Shown here in pieces: positions 2,538-42,200 of a stretch of DNA of 64,000 nt (positions are counted from its first letter, which is position 1; the number at the start of each line of letters is the position of its first letter). The position numbers and the translations under genes are program-made. The notes beneath the pieces were generated by a model. It made no database searches and was not told where the DNA came from. It was given only the letters and a program-made list of their open reading frames with translations. Origin of the DNA: Clostridia bacterium (GTDB lineage: Bacteria; Bacillota; Clostridia; Acetivibrionales; JBAZRJ01); NCBI GenBank assembly GCA_041662985.1, contig JBAZRJ010000003.1, positions 3,793-67,792 of the forward strand, in the 5' to 3' direction.

Positions 2538-3160
2538 GTCAATTTCTCCTCTCTATTACTTTTGACGTAATGCATATCAAAAAGTTCCACTTTTTTCGAC
2601 AATTTCTTTCTCAACAATTGTCTCGCCCTGCTAATTCTTGATTTAACGGTACCTTGTGGGCATTTTAAAAATGAACTGATTTCCTCGTAACTCAAATTCT
2701 GAACATCTCTCAAAATCAGAGCAATTCGAAGATCTTTTGGCAACTCCGTAATCGCTATGTTCAAAGCTTCCTTGACTTCTTTTTTTAATAAATTTGACTC
2801 CGGAGTAATACTTTCAGTCTTAAATTCAATATTGTATCTATCGTTGCTTTGTTCGATTTGCTCATCAAATGAAACAACTTTCATGTTTTTCCTGGATCTG
2901 AATTCATCCAGGCAAAGATTTGTTGTAATCCTGTAAATCCATGTTTTTAAGGAGGATTTTCCTTCAAACGTTCCAATAGACTTATATATTTTGATAAATA
3001 CTTCCTGTGTAATATCAGAAGCATCCTCATTGTTTGAGAACATCCTTAATGCAATATTGAACACAGTTTTATAATAGGCTCTGACAAGATCCTCATAAGC
3101 TTCAACGTCACCATTTTTTGCTCTTTTTATAAGCATATTGTCCTGCTCGTTCAATATCAC
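2534..3160 (-). CDS. ECF-type RNA polymerase sigma-70 family factor
   Basis: Region 2 (DASDITQEVFIKIY, LKTWIYRITTNLCLDEFR) and region 4 HTH (LSYEEISSFLKCPQGTVKSRISRAR) are recognisable. The length (~200 aa) is typical of ECF sigmas. The exact start (GTG at 3160 or TTG two codons in) is uncertain. Confidence 0.85.
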   Translation of the reverse strand: MILNEQDNMLIKRAKNGDVEAYEDLVRAYYKTVFNIALRMFSNNEDASDITQEVFIKIYKSIGTFEGKSSLKTWIYRITTNLCLDEFRSRKNMKVVSFDEQIEQSNDRYNIEFKTESITPESNLLKKEVKEALNIAITELPKDLRIALILRDVQNLSYEEISSFLKCPQGTVKSRISRARQLLRKKLSKKVELFDMHYVKSNREEKLT

Positions 3161-28113: not shown

Positions 28114-28298
28114 TAATCCAATCAATCCTTTCGTGTGTTCAGGCGCTAATAATCAAGCTTTTGCATAGTTATAATATATAAGAGTAGCATATCCGTGTCA
28201 AGTTTACAATGCATCGCAAGATACCTGATTTAACTTGCATTTAGCGTGGTAAATCACATATAATGTCCATATAGTTTTGATTTTTGAAAGGAATTCCT

Positions 28299-29639
28299 AT
28301 GAAAAACCATTTGCGCGAACTCGGAGTCGAAATTCCTAAAATTATGCTTCCAAACAAAACAGTCAATATGGAGAAATGGTCTGTTGTCGCATGTGATCAG
28401 TATACTTCCCAGCCTGAATACTGGAGTGCTGTGGCAAATTTTGTCGGAAACAGCAGCTCAACCCTAAAAATGATATTGCCTGAAATTTACCTTGGGGATA
28501 ACAACGATTCAAGAATTGAAAACATAAATCGCACAATGAAACAATATATTGACGGAAATGTGCTTGTTTCACAGGATTCGGGATTCATACTGGTTGAACG
28601 CAAAACATCGAATTGTCCGTCGAGAAAAGGCCTGATATTGGCGCTTGACCTCGAGAAATATGATTACAGCGAAGATTCCCAAACTTTAATCAGAGCGACA
28701 GAAGGCACAGTCTTAGACAGGCTTCCGCCAAGAGTCAAAATTCGTGAAAATGCGCTTTTGGAAATCCCTCATATCACAATTCTGATCGATGACCCCGGAA
28801 AAACTGTTATTGAACCTTTGTTTAAGAAGGTTTCGACCTTTGAAAAGCTTTATGACTTCGATTTAATGATGGAAGGCGGACATATCAGAGGCTATCTGGT
28901 TGATGACATCGAATCCGTCTCATCTGTTTTTGGTGCTTTGGACAAACTTATCGATAAGGATGTTTTTAAATCCAGGTACGGTGCGGGAGAAGATAAAGAA
29001 ATTCTCCTTTTTGCTGTTGGTGACGGAAACCACTCTCTCGCAGCAGCGAAAGTATGCTGGGAGAATATAAAGAAAACCCTTTCAGATTGTGAAAAGAGTG
29101 AACATCCGGCACGCTATGCACTTGTTGAGGTTCAAAACATTCATGATGATTTTTTAAATTTCGAACCTATTTTCAGAGTTGCTTTCAATATTGATGAAAA
29201 GGATATGCTTAACGCACTCGAGGACTTTTTTAAAAACAAACCTGTGCTGTATTCTGAAAAATCTTCTGTTGAAGATGCTGCAGCAGAACTCAGAAAAGAC
29301 AAAAACATCCATGTAATATCTTTTGTAATGTGCGAAAGATATGGAATTATAGTGAACAATAATCCTAAATCGACGCTTGAAGTTGCTTCATTGCAAGCTT
29401 TCCTTGATGAATATCAAAAAAGTCACACTGATATTGAAATTGATTACATTCACGGAAGAGACGTTTTGGAATCCCTCGGCGAAAAGAAAGGCAACATCGG
29501 TTTCTATACTTTACCATTAGACAAAAAGGATTTATTTAAAACAATAATTAAGGACGGAATACTTCCACGGAAAACATTTTCAATGGGAGAGGCAAGTGAA
29601 AAAAGATTTTATTTGGAATGCAGGCAAATTAAAACTTAG
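28299..29639 (+). CDS. DUF1015-family protein
   Basis: N-terminal EKWSVVACDQYTSQPEYW and mid-protein LFAVGDGNHS match my memory of DUF1015. ATG 28299 has AAAGGAA upstream. Confidence 0.7.
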   Translation: MKNHLRELGVEIPKIMLPNKTVNMEKWSVVACDQYTSQPEYWSAVANFVGNSSSTLKMILPEIYLGDNNDSRIENINRTMKQYIDGNVLVSQDSGFILVERKTSNCPSRKGLILALDLEKYDYSEDSQTLIRATEGTVLDRLPPRVKIRENALLEIPHITILIDDPGKTVIEPLFKKVSTFEKLYDFDLMMEGGHIRGYLVDDIESVSSVFGALDKLIDKDVFKSRYGAGEDKEILLFAVGDGNHSLAAAKVCWENIKKTLSDCEKSEHPARYALVEVQNIHDDFLNFEPIFRVAFNIDEKDMLNALEDFFKNKPVLYSEKSSVEDAAAELRKDKNIHVISFVMCERYGIIVNNNPKSTLEVASLQAFLDEYQKSHTDIEIDYIHGRDVLESLGEKKGNIGFYTLPLDKKDLFKTIIKDGILPRKTFSMGEASEKRFYLECRQIKT

Positions 29640-30104: not shown

Positions 30105-30392
30105 TTATTTCTGCAATTCAGCCTTTTTCTTAATGTATTCTTCGTCGTTGATTTCACCTTTAGCATAACGCTCATTCAGTATTTCAAGAGCTTTTCCCGA
30201 ATTATTTACTGAACTTTCTATTCCTCCGCAACAAGAATGATGTGTTCCGCTATGCGAATAATGTCTCATTGTCTTGATTACAAGCACAATCAGTAGAACT
30301 GCTAAAGCTATTCCAATCAAACAGAACAGTAAACCACCAAAGTGCGCAAACCTTCCGTCCATCATCCCGGGGCCGTATCTGACTAAAAACAT
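30105..30392 (-). CDS. Small membrane protein with C-terminal SHOCT domain
   Basis: Strong GGAAGGAGGGG SD and one TM helix (LLFCLIGIALAVLLIVLVI). A His/Cys-rich linker (HYSHSGTHHSCCGG) precedes a SHOCT-like tail (LEILNERYAKGEINDEEYIKKKAEL). Confidence 0.7.
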   Translation of the reverse strand: MFLVRYGPGMMDGRFAHFGGLLFCLIGIALAVLLIVLVIKTMRHYSHSGTHHSCCGGIESSVNNSGKALEILNERYAKGEINDEEYIKKKAELQK

Positions 30393-30529: not shown

Positions 30530-32134
30530 TTAAAACTTCAGCATCGATGCTTTCAGAACACCGTCTATACTTTTCAGTTCATTCAAAACTTCATCGTTTA
30601 CTTCGACATCAACGCTTACAAATGATACGGCTTTTTCGCCGCTTCTGTTTCTGCTCCATTGCATTGCGGCGATATTGATTCCTGCGTGTCCGAGGATAGT
30701 ACCTATTCCGCCGATTATGCCCGGTTTGTCTATATTCTGAATTGCAATTACGTGAGGAGTCGGTTCGAAGTCAAGCTTGTATCCAAAGAAGTCTACAATT
30801 CTTAATTCCTCTTTTGCAAATATTGTGCCTGAGACGCTCTGACATCCTTTTTTTGTGGTAAATACAACCGTAATAAGGTTCGTATATTTGTCGAGGTGAG
30901 AACTCTTGCTCTCGGTCATCTGTACGCCCATGTTTTTGAGCATAAGCTCGGCATTCACATAATTTACTTTTTCTTTAATTATTGGGTCTAAAAATCCTTT
31001 TAAAACCGAAAGTGAAATAACCCTGGTTTCAGCATCTACAAGGTCCCCGCTGTAAATAATCTCAATTTTCTGGACTGTCTCTTTCTCAGCCTGATAATAA
31101 ATCTTGCCAAGCATTTCGGCAAGAGTCAGGTAAGGTCTCAATTCTTCAATATTCTTTGCCTGCATGGAAGGCATATTGACTGCCGCAACCATTTCACCGT
31201 TCAGCGCCGCGCATACAAGTTCGGTAATCTTAGTCCCCACATTGAAATTCGCTTCATCGGTTGACGCGCCAAGATGCGGAGTTATTAGTACATTGTCAAG
31301 ATCAAGCAAAGGATTGACAAAATCCTGATCCTCAGGTTTTTTATCATAGCTTGGCTCAGGATCCAAAACATCAAGCGCCGCTGCAGCAACCTGCCCTGAA
31401 ACAATAGCGTCGTACAATGCTTTTTCATTCACAAGCCCGCCTCTTGCTGCATTTACTATTCTGACGCCTTTCCTGCAAATCTTTAACTCCTTTTCACCAA
31501 TCATTCCGTAAGTCTCTGCCGTCTTTGGCGTATGCAGTGTTATTAAATCAGACTGTTTCAAAAGCTCTTCAAGTGTTTCGCATTTTTCGACTCCAATCTG
31601 AGTGAATCTTTCATCCGTAATATATGGATCGTACGCAATTACTCTCATATTAACGCCCATTAATTTCCTGGCAACAATAGAGCCGATTCTGCCAAGACCG
31701 ATAATTCCGGCAGTTTTTTCGTCAAGCTCATTTCCTATAAATTTATTTCTTCTGAAATCTTTATTCTTAACTGCCAGATAAACCTTGGAAATATTTCTGA
31801 ATATCGCAAAGGCAAGAGCTACCGCAAGCTCGCCGGCTGCCATAATATTGCTCTCAGGTGTGTTGACAACAATAATTCCCCTTTGTGTGCAACCCTTTAC
31901 GTCTATATTGTCAATACCGTTTCCGGCACGGCCTGCGACCTTAAGTGATGCAGCTCTTTGCAGCAGCTCTTCGTTCACTTTGGTAACGCTTCTCACTATA
32001 ATTGCATCATATCCTCCGATTATTTCAAGAAGCTCTTCTCTCGGAAGACCATATTTTGTGTCAACTTCAAATCCATTTTCCCTTAGATATTCAATTCCCT
32101 CTTCTGCAATTCTTTCCGTAACGATAATTTTCAT
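30530..32134 (-). CDS. serA: D-3-phosphoglycerate dehydrogenase (long form with ASB and ACT domains)
   Basis: NAD site GIIGLGRIGS, the catalytic region TPHLGAST, and a C-terminal ACT-like segment (NIDKPGIIGGIGTILG). Start set at ATG 32134 (MKIIVTE). Confidence 0.9.
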   Translation of the reverse strand: MKIIVTERIAEEGIEYLRENGFEVDTKYGLPREELLEIIGGYDAIIVRSVTKVNEELLQRAASLKVAGRAGNGIDNIDVKGCTQRGIIVVNTPESNIMAAGELAVALAFAIFRNISKVYLAVKNKDFRRNKFIGNELDEKTAGIIGLGRIGSIVARKLMGVNMRVIAYDPYITDERFTQIGVEKCETLEELLKQSDLITLHTPKTAETYGMIGEKELKICRKGVRIVNAARGGLVNEKALYDAIVSGQVAAAALDVLDPEPSYDKKPEDQDFVNPLLDLDNVLITPHLGASTDEANFNVGTKITELVCAALNGEMVAAVNMPSMQAKNIEELRPYLTLAEMLGKIYYQAEKETVQKIEIIYSGDLVDAETRVISLSVLKGFLDPIIKEKVNYVNAELMLKNMGVQMTESKSSHLDKYTNLITVVFTTKKGCQSVSGTIFAKEELRIVDFFGYKLDFEPTPHVIAIQNIDKPGIIGGIGTILGHAGINIAAMQWSRNRSGEKAVSFVSVDVEVNDEVLNELKSIDGVLKASMLKF

Positions 32135-32165: not shown

Positions 32166-33236
32166 TTATATACCAAGAATCCCGTCAATAACCGACAAGA
32201 GCTCTTTTATTTCATCAATCTGCATGTCCGCCATATGTGCAATCCTGAAGGTTATATTTTTATAATCTCCGTATCCGTTTGAAATCATGTATCCTTTTTC
32301 TCCGAGTTTTTTGTTCAATTCCTGAACATCTATGTTTCTTGTGTTGCTAATTGCCGTAACTGTATTTGATAAATACTTTTCGTCAGCAAATAATTCAAAT
32401 TTCTCTCTCGCCCACCCGCGGACACAATCCGCCATATCCAAATGGCGTTTGAACCTGTTTTCAAGACCTTCCTCAAGTATCCTGTCAAGCTGATAATCAA
32501 GTGCGAACATATGCGACAGCGAAGGAGTCGAAGGATACTGATAATCCTTTTTCTGAATACAATTATATAAATCAAGCAAGTCGAGGTACAAACCTCTGAA
32601 CTCGACATTTTTTGCCGCTTCTACTGCCTTTTGAGAAATCGAACAAATTGACATTCCCGGAGGCAGTCCAAGACATTTCTGTGTCGAAGTGATGCAGACA
32701 TCAACTCCAAGCCTGTCAACCTCAATCTTTGTTCCTCCCATGGAACTTACTGTATCCATGCACCAGACAACATGTGGATATTTCTTAATTACCTCTGCTA
32801 TTTCATCCATAGGATTCATTACACCTGAAGATGTTTCATTGTGTGTTATTGTTATAACGTCATATTTTTCTGTTTTCAACACTTCGTCAACCATTGCAGG
32901 TATTGTTGCGTGACCTGCTTCCGAAGTAAACTTATCTGCCGGCACATTGTTTGCGACAGCCATCCTGTACCATCTTTCTCCGAATGCTCCGACTGAAAAA
33001 ACCGCTGCTCTTTTTTGTGTGCATGAACGAATCGCACCTTCCATCAAGCCGCTGCCCGATGAAGTCGATAAAATTATTTCATTGTTTGTATACATGACCT
33101 TTCTCATTTTATCCGAAATGGTTCTCTGTAAATTTGAAGCATCCTTTGAACGATGGCTTATCATTGGCGTTGCCATCTTTTCCAAAACATCCTGTCTGAC
33201 TTCAACGGGTCCCGGTATAAATAATTTCTTGTGCAT
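32166..33236 (-). CDS. Class-V aminotransferase (AGXT/serine-pyruvate family; probable alternative-type phosphoserine aminotransferase)
   Basis: LFIPGPVEV N-terminus and the PLP-lysine region TSTQKCLGLPPG. It forms an operon with serA. ATG 33236 is preceded by GGAGGA. Confidence 0.8.
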   Translation of the reverse strand: MHKKLFIPGPVEVRQDVLEKMATPMISHRSKDASNLQRTISDKMRKVMYTNNEIILSTSSGSGLMEGAIRSCTQKRAAVFSVGAFGERWYRMAVANNVPADKFTSEAGHATIPAMVDEVLKTEKYDVITITHNETSSGVMNPMDEIAEVIKKYPHVVWCMDTVSSMGGTKIEVDRLGVDVCITSTQKCLGLPPGMSICSISQKAVEAAKNVEFRGLYLDLLDLYNCIQKKDYQYPSTPSLSHMFALDYQLDRILEEGLENRFKRHLDMADCVRGWAREKFELFADEKYLSNTVTAISNTRNIDVQELNKKLGEKGYMISNGYGDYKNITFRIAHMADMQIDEIKELLSVIDGILGI

Positions 33237-33299
33237 TTTATCCTCCATTCCAATAAATAAAGGTCAAACCATTAAACTGATTTGACCTCCGAAAACACC

Positions 33300-33337
33300 A
33301 AAAACGCAAGTGCTCTTTCGAACACTAACCCTTGCGT
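33300..33337 (-). terminator. Expression-platform terminator of the glycine riboswitch
   Basis: Minus strand: ACGCAAG...CTTGCGT stem (33337-33331 / 33310-33304) followed by TTTTT. Confidence 0.7.
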
Positions 33338-33340
33338 ATA

Positions 33341-33482
33341 CTCTGTCCTTTTGCCTGAGAGATTATTCCCCTTCGGCGCCATTTTGGTCTCTCCAGAGAT
33401 CCGTCATGATGAAGTCTTTTATACCTGAGAGTGCTACTCCTTCGGTGAATTTCCGGAAATCGAAAATTTCTCTCCCTCATCA
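33341..33482 (-). ncRNA. Tandem glycine riboswitch (two aptamers)
   Basis: Aptamer 1 (33482-33407): UGAUGAGGGAGAG...CACCGAAGGAGUAGCACUCUCAGGUAUAAAAGACUUCAUCA. Aptamer 2 (33398-33341): CUCUGGAGAGACC...GGCGCCGAAGGGGAAUAAUCUCUCAGGCAAAAGGACAGAG. Both carry the GGAGAG / CCGAAGG / CUCAGG..AAAGGAC glycine-aptamer signature. Confidence 0.85.
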
Positions 33483-33522
33483 GTCATCCGTCTATATTTA
33501 CTTTAAAGTTAATTTTGATATA

Positions 33523-33551
33523 ATTATAAATATTCGAATAAAACATGTCAA
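33523..33551 (-). promoter_or_regulatory. Consensus sigma-A promoter driving the riboswitch leader
   Basis: Minus strand: TTGACA (33551-33546), a 17-nt spacer, then TATAAT (33528-33523). Confidence 0.7.
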
Positions 33552-33572
33552 GTATTTTTTGGAGGAATGACA

Positions 33573-42052: not shown

Positions 42053-42079
42053 AGAACACCTCCGTTTACAATTTTAAAT

Positions 42080-42200
42080 AAAAAAAATGGATTACCGATA
42101 GTAATCCACTCGAATACAAGTTAAAGTTCAATAAACTTTACCATTAACCTTAAAGAACATATCCGTAAGGTGAGAAGCGGATTACCTCTGCTTTATTTCG
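42080..42200 (-). promoter_or_regulatory. L20 leader (ribosomal-protein autoregulatory attenuator) upstream of infC
   Basis: A ~120-nt leader between the promoter and the infC SD. It ends in the hairpin TGGATTAC-TATCG-GTAATCCA plus T8 (42108-42080). Position and architecture match the Firmicutes infC-rpmI-rplT leader. Confidence 0.65.

Follow-up and report, generated by a model that had tools for sequence, protein, structure and literature searches.

The serine-biosynthesis-type operon analysed here, which encodes a SerC3-like aminotransferase and SerA in the genome of an uncultured member of the Clostridia, is probably controlled by a tandem glycine riboswitch that acts as a transcriptional OFF switch. 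The operon lies within a stretch of 64,000 nucleotides, hereafter called the window, and all positions refer to the minus strand of the window unless the plus strand is indicated.

Organization of the leader and the operon

The leader is preceded by a sigma-70-type promoter with 12 of 12 consensus matches (33523..33551), in which the TTGACA box (33551-33546) and the TATAAT box (33528-33523) are separated by a spacer of 17 nt; transcription is predicted to start at about 33516. The consensus promoter and the leader of about 280 nt behind it are in agreement with the initial annotation of this region, which had also listed a Shine-Dalgarno sequence, a class-V aminotransferase gene and serA as the elements that follow. 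Indeed, the Shine-Dalgarno sequence GGAGGA (33241..33246) is located 4 nt 5' of the start codon ATG 33236 of a gene encoding a class-V (AGXT-family) aminotransferase of 356 aa (32166..33236, PF00266), and the next gene is serA (30530..32134), which encodes a D-3-phosphoglycerate dehydrogenase of 534 aa with an ACT domain and reaches 618.5 bits against the equivalog model TIGR01327 (cut-off 454). serA starts with ATG 32134, 31 nt past the aminotransferase stop, and has the Shine-Dalgarno sequence GGAAGGGGA. The earlier remark that this gene context is unlike the usual gcv context also holds, in that the leader precedes an aminotransferase-serA operon.

The aminotransferase belongs to the alanine-glyoxylate/serine-pyruvate type (PF00266), and none of the NCBIfam equivalogs, including SerC, reaches its cut-off for this protein. 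SerC3 has been defined as a PF00266 aminotransferase adjoining serA in Clostridium (PMC9026213), with A5I0W7 of Clostridium botulinum as a validated representative (PMC9026213; bioRxiv 10.1101/2024.10.14.618325), and a serC mutant of E. coli could be rescued with one SerC3 protein (bioRxiv 10.1101/2024.10.14.618325). The window shows the corresponding context, that is, a PF00266 aminotransferase encoded directly 5' of serA in Clostridia, and we infer that the protein is a SerC3-type phosphoserine aminotransferase and that the operon would make phosphoserine from 3-phosphoglycerate. A DUF1015 gene (28284..29639, plus strand; PF06245, 206 bits) is convergent with serA. An alternative SerB function, i.e. 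that of a phosphoserine phosphatase, has been suggested for DUF1015 (bioRxiv 10.1101/2024.10.14.618325), and the protein may provide the third enzyme of the pathway; its gene lies outside the riboswitch-controlled transcript.

Homologues of the aminotransferase with 70-90% identity are present across many Clostridia genomes and MAGs, including named Clostridium species (73-76% identical), and serA is located 3' of the aminotransferase gene in all checked relatives whose DNA reaches far enough. The nearest relative (L081, 90% identical aminotransferase) fully matches the synteny of the window including DUF1015, and its serA orthologue encodes a protein of 534 aa with PGDH_inter and ACT domains.

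Two glycine aptamers flanking a K-turn linker

In a window-wide Rfam scan, matches were limited to the glycine aptamer and an L20 leader at 42 kb, and neither a T-box nor a ZTP partner was found at the Rfam gathering score in the window. The scan with the glycine model RF00504 that had been suggested for the minus strand at about 33341-33482 yielded two adjacent matches above the gathering score of 32 bits. Aptamer 2 (33341..33398; P1 formed by CUCUG 33398-33394 and CAGAG 33345-33341) was matched at 33406..33333 with 54.2 bits and an E-value of 2.2e-8 in the whole-window scan; its core is fully canonical, and its P1 is invariant among 45 related leaders. Aptamer 1 (33407..33483; P1 formed by CUGAUGAG and CUUCAUCA) was matched at 33487..33408 with 41.1 bits and an E-value of 9.1e-8, a match that was obtained only when this stretch was scanned alone, the filters having dropped aptamer 1 in the whole-window scan. 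Its core comprises GGAGAG, CACCGAAGG, CUCAGGU and AAAAGAC and departs from the canonical core at two sites: the first P3 pair is A-U and not G-C, which represents a compensated change (ACC...GGU), and J3/1 reads AGAC and not GGAC. Every motif quoted in the initial annotation for the two aptamers (GGAGAG, CCGAAGG, CUCAGG..A(A/G)GAC) could be located, and both P1 helices that it had described, UGAUGAG/CUUCAUCA and CUCUG/CAGAG, are present.

Upstream of aptamer 1, the leader strand ACGGAUGA (33484..33491) pairs with the linker UGACGG (33406-33401) in an alignment to the tandem model RF03166, in which the two strands occupy the P0/K-turn columns (model positions 1-9 and 105-110, CGGAUGA...UGACGG). 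The outermost P0 pair is non-standard, and ACGGAUGA and UGACGG otherwise fit the P0/K-turn columns of the tandem model; the K-turn frame CGGAUGA...GGACG was found in all relatives. With two adjacent RF00504 aptamers, conserved cores within P1, P2 and P3, and a P0/K-turn, we conclude that the two-aptamer RNA is, as judged from its sequence, a tandem glycine riboswitch with predicted glycine binding.

Among the best 80 species-level relatives of the aminotransferase, 24 carry a glycine aptamer core directly upstream of the gene, and an Rfam scan confirmed the core at all of the 20 loci tested. In 20 loci without an aptamer core (126 kb), no Rfam family reached its gathering score. The 24 riboswitch-bearing loci comprise 21 type-2 singlets and 3 tandems. 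In the singlet leaders, a short hairpin replaces aptamer 1 inside the CGGAUGA...GGACG K-turn, i.e. a 5' ghost aptamer, and the leaders L081-L084 from metagenomes, whose aminotransferases are 80-90% identical, are tandems like the one in the window. A tandem leader is also carried by a cultivable relative, Anaerobacterium chartisolvens DSM 27016 (L022).

These relatives bear on the contribution of aptamer 1. The RNA might function as a type-2 singlet in which aptamer 1 is a scaffold only (A-minor, K-turn partner), a reading that is compatible with an OFF switch. It is favored by the lower score of aptamer 1 (41.1 compared to 54.2 bits) and its two core departures, of which AGAC in place of GGAC is common to the tandem relatives, by the ghost hairpin that replaces aptamer 1 in 21 of the 24 riboswitch-bearing relatives, and by published OFF tandems, which depend mainly on aptamer 2 (PMC7161355). 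However, aptamer 1 scores above the Rfam threshold, keeps GGAGAG, CCGAAGG, CUCAGG and the pocket-adjacent P3 G-C pairs, and its P1 is predicted to be stable (p ~0.9). We consider it possible but rather doubtful that aptamer 1 is only a scaffold, and the accompanying notion that aptamer 1 is on its way to the ghost aptamer of most relatives is likewise tentative.

Hairpins downstream of the aptamers

Two hairpins are located between aptamer 2 and the aminotransferase gene. Hairpin H1 (33304..33337; ACGCAAG..GUGUUC-GAAA-GAGCAC..CUUGCGU, −11.1 kcal/mol) begins 3 nt after P1 of aptamer 2, and a U5 tract (33304-33300) lies directly 3' of it; the earlier observation that a terminator stem starts 3-4 nt past P1 and does not overlap the P1 3' strand is accurate for this hairpin. 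Of 53 unique leaders, 96% have a hairpin at the position of H1, with a mean z of −2.4 relative to shuffles; its structure is kept but its sequence is not, and the U-run behind H1 was seen in the window alone, being absent in L081, L083, L084, L105 and all singlets.

Hairpin H2 (33260..33289; 13 pairs, −16.2 kcal/mol) is 45 nt downstream of H1, was flagged as terminator-like and did not appear in the initial annotation. Its pairs run from A33288-U33261 to A33278-U33271 around the loop GUUUAA, and it overlaps the U-rich tail UUUAUUUAUU (33261-33252), the U-tract of which is interrupted. H2 is near-identical in every relative (RGGUCARRUC...GAUUUGRYCU): 10 of its pairs can form in all (100%) of 51 unique leaders, and in a second alignment of 45 leaders the paired fraction was 97%, compared to 23-52% for slid controls. 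The substitutions in H2 are nearly all changes of G-C or A-U to G-U. Sequestration of the Shine-Dalgarno sequence by H2 was also considered. Since H2 is separated from the Shine-Dalgarno sequence by 60-300 nt in several relatives, it does not act by masking this element, and the match in the window is limited to a weak CCUUU:GGAGG. From this we conclude that, based on sequence conservation, H2 and not H1 is the conserved intrinsic terminator of the related leaders. The ACGCAAG...CUUGCGU-U5 terminator of the initial annotation therefore exists as a hairpin with a U5 tract, but the conserved and putatively regulated terminator is H2.

Alternatively, H1 together with U5 (33337..33300) could be the operative glycine-responsive terminator, with H2 being incidental or a back-up. 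Such a role would agree with the features of a 7+7-bp hairpin of −11.1 kcal/mol with UUUUU directly after it, the inner part of which was flagged as terminator-like, and with the start of H1 only 3 nt past P1. However, a search for an antiterminator of H1 gave best partners of its two strands with −9.9 and −6.0 kcal/mol, which is weaker than most shuffles, so that there is no above-chance upstream complementarity by which H1 could be switched. Moreover, none of L081, L083, L084, L105 and the singlets has the U-run, whereas every relative has H2, and the U-run itself is part of the extended antiterminator of the window described below. We regard H1 as a very unlikely operative terminator. As the search gave H1 no upstream partner beyond chance, it was treated as constitutive, and H1 with U5 may be a site of pausing or a constitutive but leaky attenuator. 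H1 with U5 resembles an unregulated terminator, and the mechanism proposed below leaves this resemblance unexplained.

A candidate antiterminator that could compete with P1 of aptamer 2

Aptamer 2 contains sequence complementary to the 5' half of H2. The 5' strand of the candidate antiterminator, GGAUCUCUGGAGAGACCAAAA (33383..33402), runs from the linker through the P1 5' strand and J1/2 to the P2 5' strand of aptamer 2, and its 3' strand, UUUUGGUGUUUUCGGAGGUC (33284..33303), reaches from the spacer into the 5' half of H2. The 3' strand contains CGGAGGUC (33291-33284), which mimics the 3' strand of P1 and extends into the base of H2; most tandems have CAGAGGUC instead. The partner of CGGAGGUC on the side of aptamer 2 is GAUCUCUG (33401-33394), and the mimic element can generally pair with GAYCUCUG, i.e. 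with the linker together with the 5' strand of P1. The window extends this complementarity through the spacer (UUUUGGU:ACCAAAA), including the U-run of H1, so that about 20 bp could form. Most of the spacer, UUUUGGUGUUUU at 33303-33292, and of its partner, GGAGAGACCAAAA, is outside P1, and this partner overlaps the conserved GGAGAG core. The complete duplex has a predicted energy of −23.2 kcal/mol, compared to −13.5 ± 2.5 kcal/mol for shuffles, none of which (0/200) reached this value.

Complementarity of this kind is found throughout the family. Across the family alignment, YRGAGGUC and GAYCUCUG were paired in 86.9% of cells in register, compared to 27-44% when slid. Leaders of the GGUCAAAUC type, to which the window belongs, have the mimic helix 89% paired, while singlets of the GGUCAGGUC type mostly pair a neighbouring aptamer segment (GAGACC:GGUCUY, 99% paired). 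Thus, the detail of the antiterminator does not seem to be uniform across the family. In an unbiased search, the upstream stretch that paired best with the 5' half of H2 lay within the 5' half of aptamer 2 in 45 of 54 leaders, and in minimum free energy (MFE) folds of truncated transcripts GGUC of H2 paired with the 5' half of aptamer 2 in 33 of 58 leaders, compared to 54 of 580 shuffles. In L081, the nearest relative, only 5 of the 8 pairs of the mimic helix are possible. The family alignment shows no compensatory changes in the antiterminator, and varying pairs change on one side only, which renders the covariation shuffle control uninformative. The antiterminator is thus a candidate defined by conserved complementarity only.

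Folding of the alternative structures, which had been proposed with the initial annotation, gave a divided picture. In the MFE fold of a window transcript that stops before the 3' strand of H2, a helix of about 20 bp including GGAGGUC is formed. In the complete transcript at equilibrium (ViennaRNA), however, H2 stays formed (p ~0.9), with the antiterminator state 2.5 kcal/mol and the P1-enforced state 5.5 kcal/mol above the MFE; a separate MFE fold of the full-length leader gave the antiterminator instead of H2. Since H2 is retained at equilibrium, antitermination would have to be kinetic. When both P1 helices were enforced, the full 13-bp H2 formed, as expected for an OFF-type leader, in which the terminator forms with P1 formed and does not overlap the P1 3' strand. 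A classical design in which the P1 3' strand is switched was rejected, given that CAGAG is identical and not complementary to the base of H2. The P1 3' strand is not part of either hairpin, which excludes the classical ON design, and as the pairing of the H2 5' half and the spacer would compete with P1, the architecture reads as glycine-OFF. Contrary to the earlier statement that the switch logic cannot be read by eye, a direction can thus be proposed, since the 5' half of H2 matches the region around the 5' strand of P1.

According to the mechanism that we propose, glycine would bind, chiefly to the canonical aptamer 2, and lock P1 (CUCUG:CAGAG). CGGAG in CGGAGGUC, which copies the 3' strand of P1 further downstream, would then remain unpaired, and this would allow H2 to form and RNA polymerase to terminate in the U-rich tail at about 33255. 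Without glycine, P1 would be weak, and GGAUCUCUGGAGAGACCAAAA could pair with the emerging UUUUGGUGUUUUCGGAGGUC before the 3' strand of H2 exists; this pairing would sequester the G+C-rich base of H2 and permit read-through into the operon. H1 may act as a structural hinge or pause hairpin that separates the two competing CAGAG-type strands.

Genes downstream of related leaders and the direction of the switch

A metagenome scan with a pattern that combined the 3' end of aptamer 2 with a subsequent H2 5' strand returned 52 loci, in which the downstream genes were aminotransferase-serA (20 loci), SHMT/glyA (21 loci), serC (4 loci) and an amino-acid binding protein (1 locus), with 6 loci being too short or undetermined; because the pattern itself required H2, the prevalence of the platform cannot be read from this set. 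SHMT scored 638-640 bits (cut-off 335) and the canonical serC 556 bits (cut-off 253), the latter with a serA-like gene next to it. The genes of this regulon make serine or glycine, which fits feedback repression. This fit is tempered by glyA being glycine-induced in some organisms.

Serine is the precursor of glycine. As glycine is made from serine, high glycine would signal that the branch from 3-phosphoglycerate to serine can be shut. The OFF option of the initial annotation, i.e. end-product feedback on the serine pathway, is the favored one, owing to the complementarity described above and to the type-2 singlets among the sister leaders.

The second option of the initial annotation was an ON switch, with the aminotransferase-dehydrogenase pair running catabolically on glycine-derived serine. 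Spelled out, glycine would induce this pair (and glyA elsewhere), and glycine-derived serine would be fed into glycolysis. The phosphorylated pathway would run in reverse, the neighbouring DUF1015 protein acting as the serine kinase: serine would be converted to phosphoserine, then to 3-phosphohydroxypyruvate and finally to 3-phosphoglycerate. Several observations are in line with this option: some DUF1015 proteins may be kinases, and reversed SerC and SerA could serve serine utilisation in Bacteroides (bioRxiv 10.1101/2024.10.14.618325); glyA of Clostridium acidurici is induced by glycine (PMC3519856); and the Streptomyces gcvT-gcvH-glyA-sdhA operon, which includes glyA, is riboswitch-controlled (PMC12452182). 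In addition, the aminotransferase scores below every SerC equivalog cut-off, and equilibrium folding alone does not demonstrate antitermination. On the other hand, the P1 3' strand is free of terminator overlap and no aptamer-stabilised helix competes with H2, which forms completely when P1 is enforced and whose complementarity to the P1 5' strand corresponds to OFF logic. Moreover, type-2 singlets, to which the sister leaders belong, have been reported as OFF (PMC6239177), the SerA protein matches TIGR01327 and has an ACT domain, as is typical of the feedback-inhibited biosynthetic enzyme, and the DUF1015 gene is on the opposite strand, outside the regulated transcript. We consider a catabolic ON switch unlikely, and the reversed route with a serine kinase is similarly improbable. 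If it were true, GlyA, the aminotransferase, SerA and the DUF1015 protein would feed glycine carbon into glycolysis in anaerobes.

Compared to the glycine-ON reading, it is more likely that Clostridia possess a dedicated glycine-OFF platform, in which two CAGAG copies on either side of a hinge hairpin alternate as partners of the P1 5' strand, and that this platform is reused for glyA, serC and serC3-serA.

Comparison with known glycine riboswitches

The gcvT-gcvPA-gcvPB riboswitch of B. subtilis (RF00504) shares with the window two like cores, a P0/K-turn and one downstream transcriptional platform. It is an ON switch for glycine catabolism genes, and its terminator includes the P1 3' strand of aptamer 2, whereas in the window the terminator lies apart from P1 behind an intervening hairpin, a copy of the P1 3' strand competes, and the genes are biosynthetic.

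The window is closer to the known OFF types, namely the tandems upstream of sodium:alanine symporter genes in Vibrio cholerae, Fusobacterium nucleatum and Streptococcus pyogenes and the type-2 singlet of Desulfitobacterium hafniense (PMC7161355, PMC6239177, PMC5829553). Type-2 singlets have been reported almost exclusively as OFF switches, one of them being OFF in vitro (PMC6239177, PMC7161355), and published OFF tandems retain the K-turn and depend on aptamer 2 (PMC7161355). The leader in the window likewise has a canonical K-turn, a better conserved aptamer 2 and predicted repression by glycine, and its sister leaders resemble the OFF class in being type-2 singlets with a 5' ghost hairpin. 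The difference lies in the targets: the published OFF examples control transporters, which make up 99% of the characterised contexts of type-2 singlets (PMC6239177), while the window targets enzymes of serine/glycine biosynthesis. Judging from the family comparison, the 99% figure undercounts biosynthetic targets. The occurrence of tandems and ghost-aptamer type-2 singlets within one gene context fits the published decay of OFF tandems into singlets. In the literature on OFF-type glycine riboswitches that we examined, we found no description of a terminator whose base mimics the P1 3' strand.

The tandem variant glycine-GGAnGA (RF03166) was considered as an alternative assignment. It shares a tandem model with K-turn, to which the window aligns over the full length, yet the score of 84.8 bits is below the gathering score of 110, and the window has canonical cores and RF00504 matches above the threshold.

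With respect to the regulon, glycine riboswitches 5' of phosphoserine aminotransferase, serC and serA genes have been reported from comparative genomics (PMC3766115), and the part of Kazanov 2007 that is cited there concerns glycine control of serC/serA. Sherlock 2022 predicted OFF switches for glycine/T-box-Ser 5' of serC-serA-serS, a case with two full aptamers, and for ZTP/glycine 5' of serA (PMC9481103). These cases share the ligand class and the pathway with the window. They involve canonical serC or serA alone, often with T-box-Ser or ZTP in series, whereas the window has the riboswitch alone and a non-canonical class-V SerC3-like aminotransferase as the first gene. The characterization of the regulon as non-standard in the initial annotation is thus overstated (PMC3766115, PMC9481103), and glycine repression of serine synthesis is a rare but previously reported use of this riboswitch.

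The leader described here leaves the understanding of the riboswitch class unchanged. It adds an example of a little-documented third use, feedback on serine/glycine synthesis, beside the induction of glycine cleavage and the repression of uptake, and the link between riboswitch and SerC3 provides independent regulatory support for a role of SerC3 in serine synthesis. While the regulon is only partly new, the new detail compared to the known systems consists of the candidate strand-mimic mechanism and of one conserved clostridial terminator module that is common to the leaders of glyA, serC and serC3-serA.

Variation at the 3' end of the riboswitch

The run of five uridines (33300-33304, minus strand) that follows H1, the hairpin placed after aptamer-2 P1, is found only in the window; in the relatives L081, L083, L084 and L105, mixed A and U residues take its place after H1. 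H1 and this run may act in termination, in pausing, or solely by supplying the 3' strand of the proposed antiterminator. Across the leaders L003-L136, the aptamer-2 P2 loop has a sequence that differs from group to group and is related to the terminator. In the GGUCAGGUC-type singlets, the P2 loop AUGAC can pair with GUCA in the 5' strand of the conserved terminator hairpin H2, and in many glyA leaders the loop GUCAA can pair with UUGAC in the 3' strand of H2.

At the other end of the leader, window positions 33497-33551 hold two back-to-back promoters with overlapping -10 boxes, i.e. the riboswitch promoter on the minus strand and an opposing site on the plus strand (TTTACT-16-TG-TATAAT, 10/12 matches), which points toward a divergently oriented gene for an ABC-transporter ATPase at 33567.

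Operon layout and other RNA regulators

In two relatives, L083 (3602-6068) and L084 (3733-6206), the aminotransferase gene is followed by two tandem phosphoglycerate dehydrogenase paralogues. In two others, L039 (~2800-3000) and L064 (~2700-3000), the stretch from the riboswitch terminator to the start codon of the aminotransferase gene contains short repeated hairpin-like units (e.g. AGCAGRCGRAYCUGYCUYAUR and AUAACAGGAGACAAAYRC) over 180-300 nt.

In several relatives (L015, 6358-6627; L039, 6735-7004; L023, 6136-6236; L038, 6587-6686), the aminotransferase-serA operon is followed at a distance of a few kb by single or paired matches to the c-di-GMP-I-GGC riboswitch (RF03167), and in L047 a c-di-GMP-II match is located upstream (931-1015). 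No Rfam family reached its gathering score in the 126 kb covering the 20 aminotransferase-serA loci that lack the riboswitch (L001, L005, L007 and 17 more). The window itself contains a ribosomal protein L20 leader (42073-42199, minus strand; RF00558, 61.1 bits, gathering score 58.7), presumably upstream of infC-rpmI-rplT.

Gene content around serA

Directly 3' of serA, on the same strand, lies a small ORF that carries a SHOCT domain at its C-terminus (30105-30392, minus strand; PF09851, 35 bits). A DUF1015 gene (28284-29639, plus strand; PF06245, 206 bits) is convergent with serA, and this synteny is identical in L081, the nearest relative. Since DUF1015 has been proposed as an alternative phosphoserine phosphatase or serine kinase (bioRxiv 10.1101/2024.10.14.618325), the window locus may encode all three steps of serine synthesis, although the riboswitch precedes the genes for only two of them, the DUF1015 gene not being located behind it.
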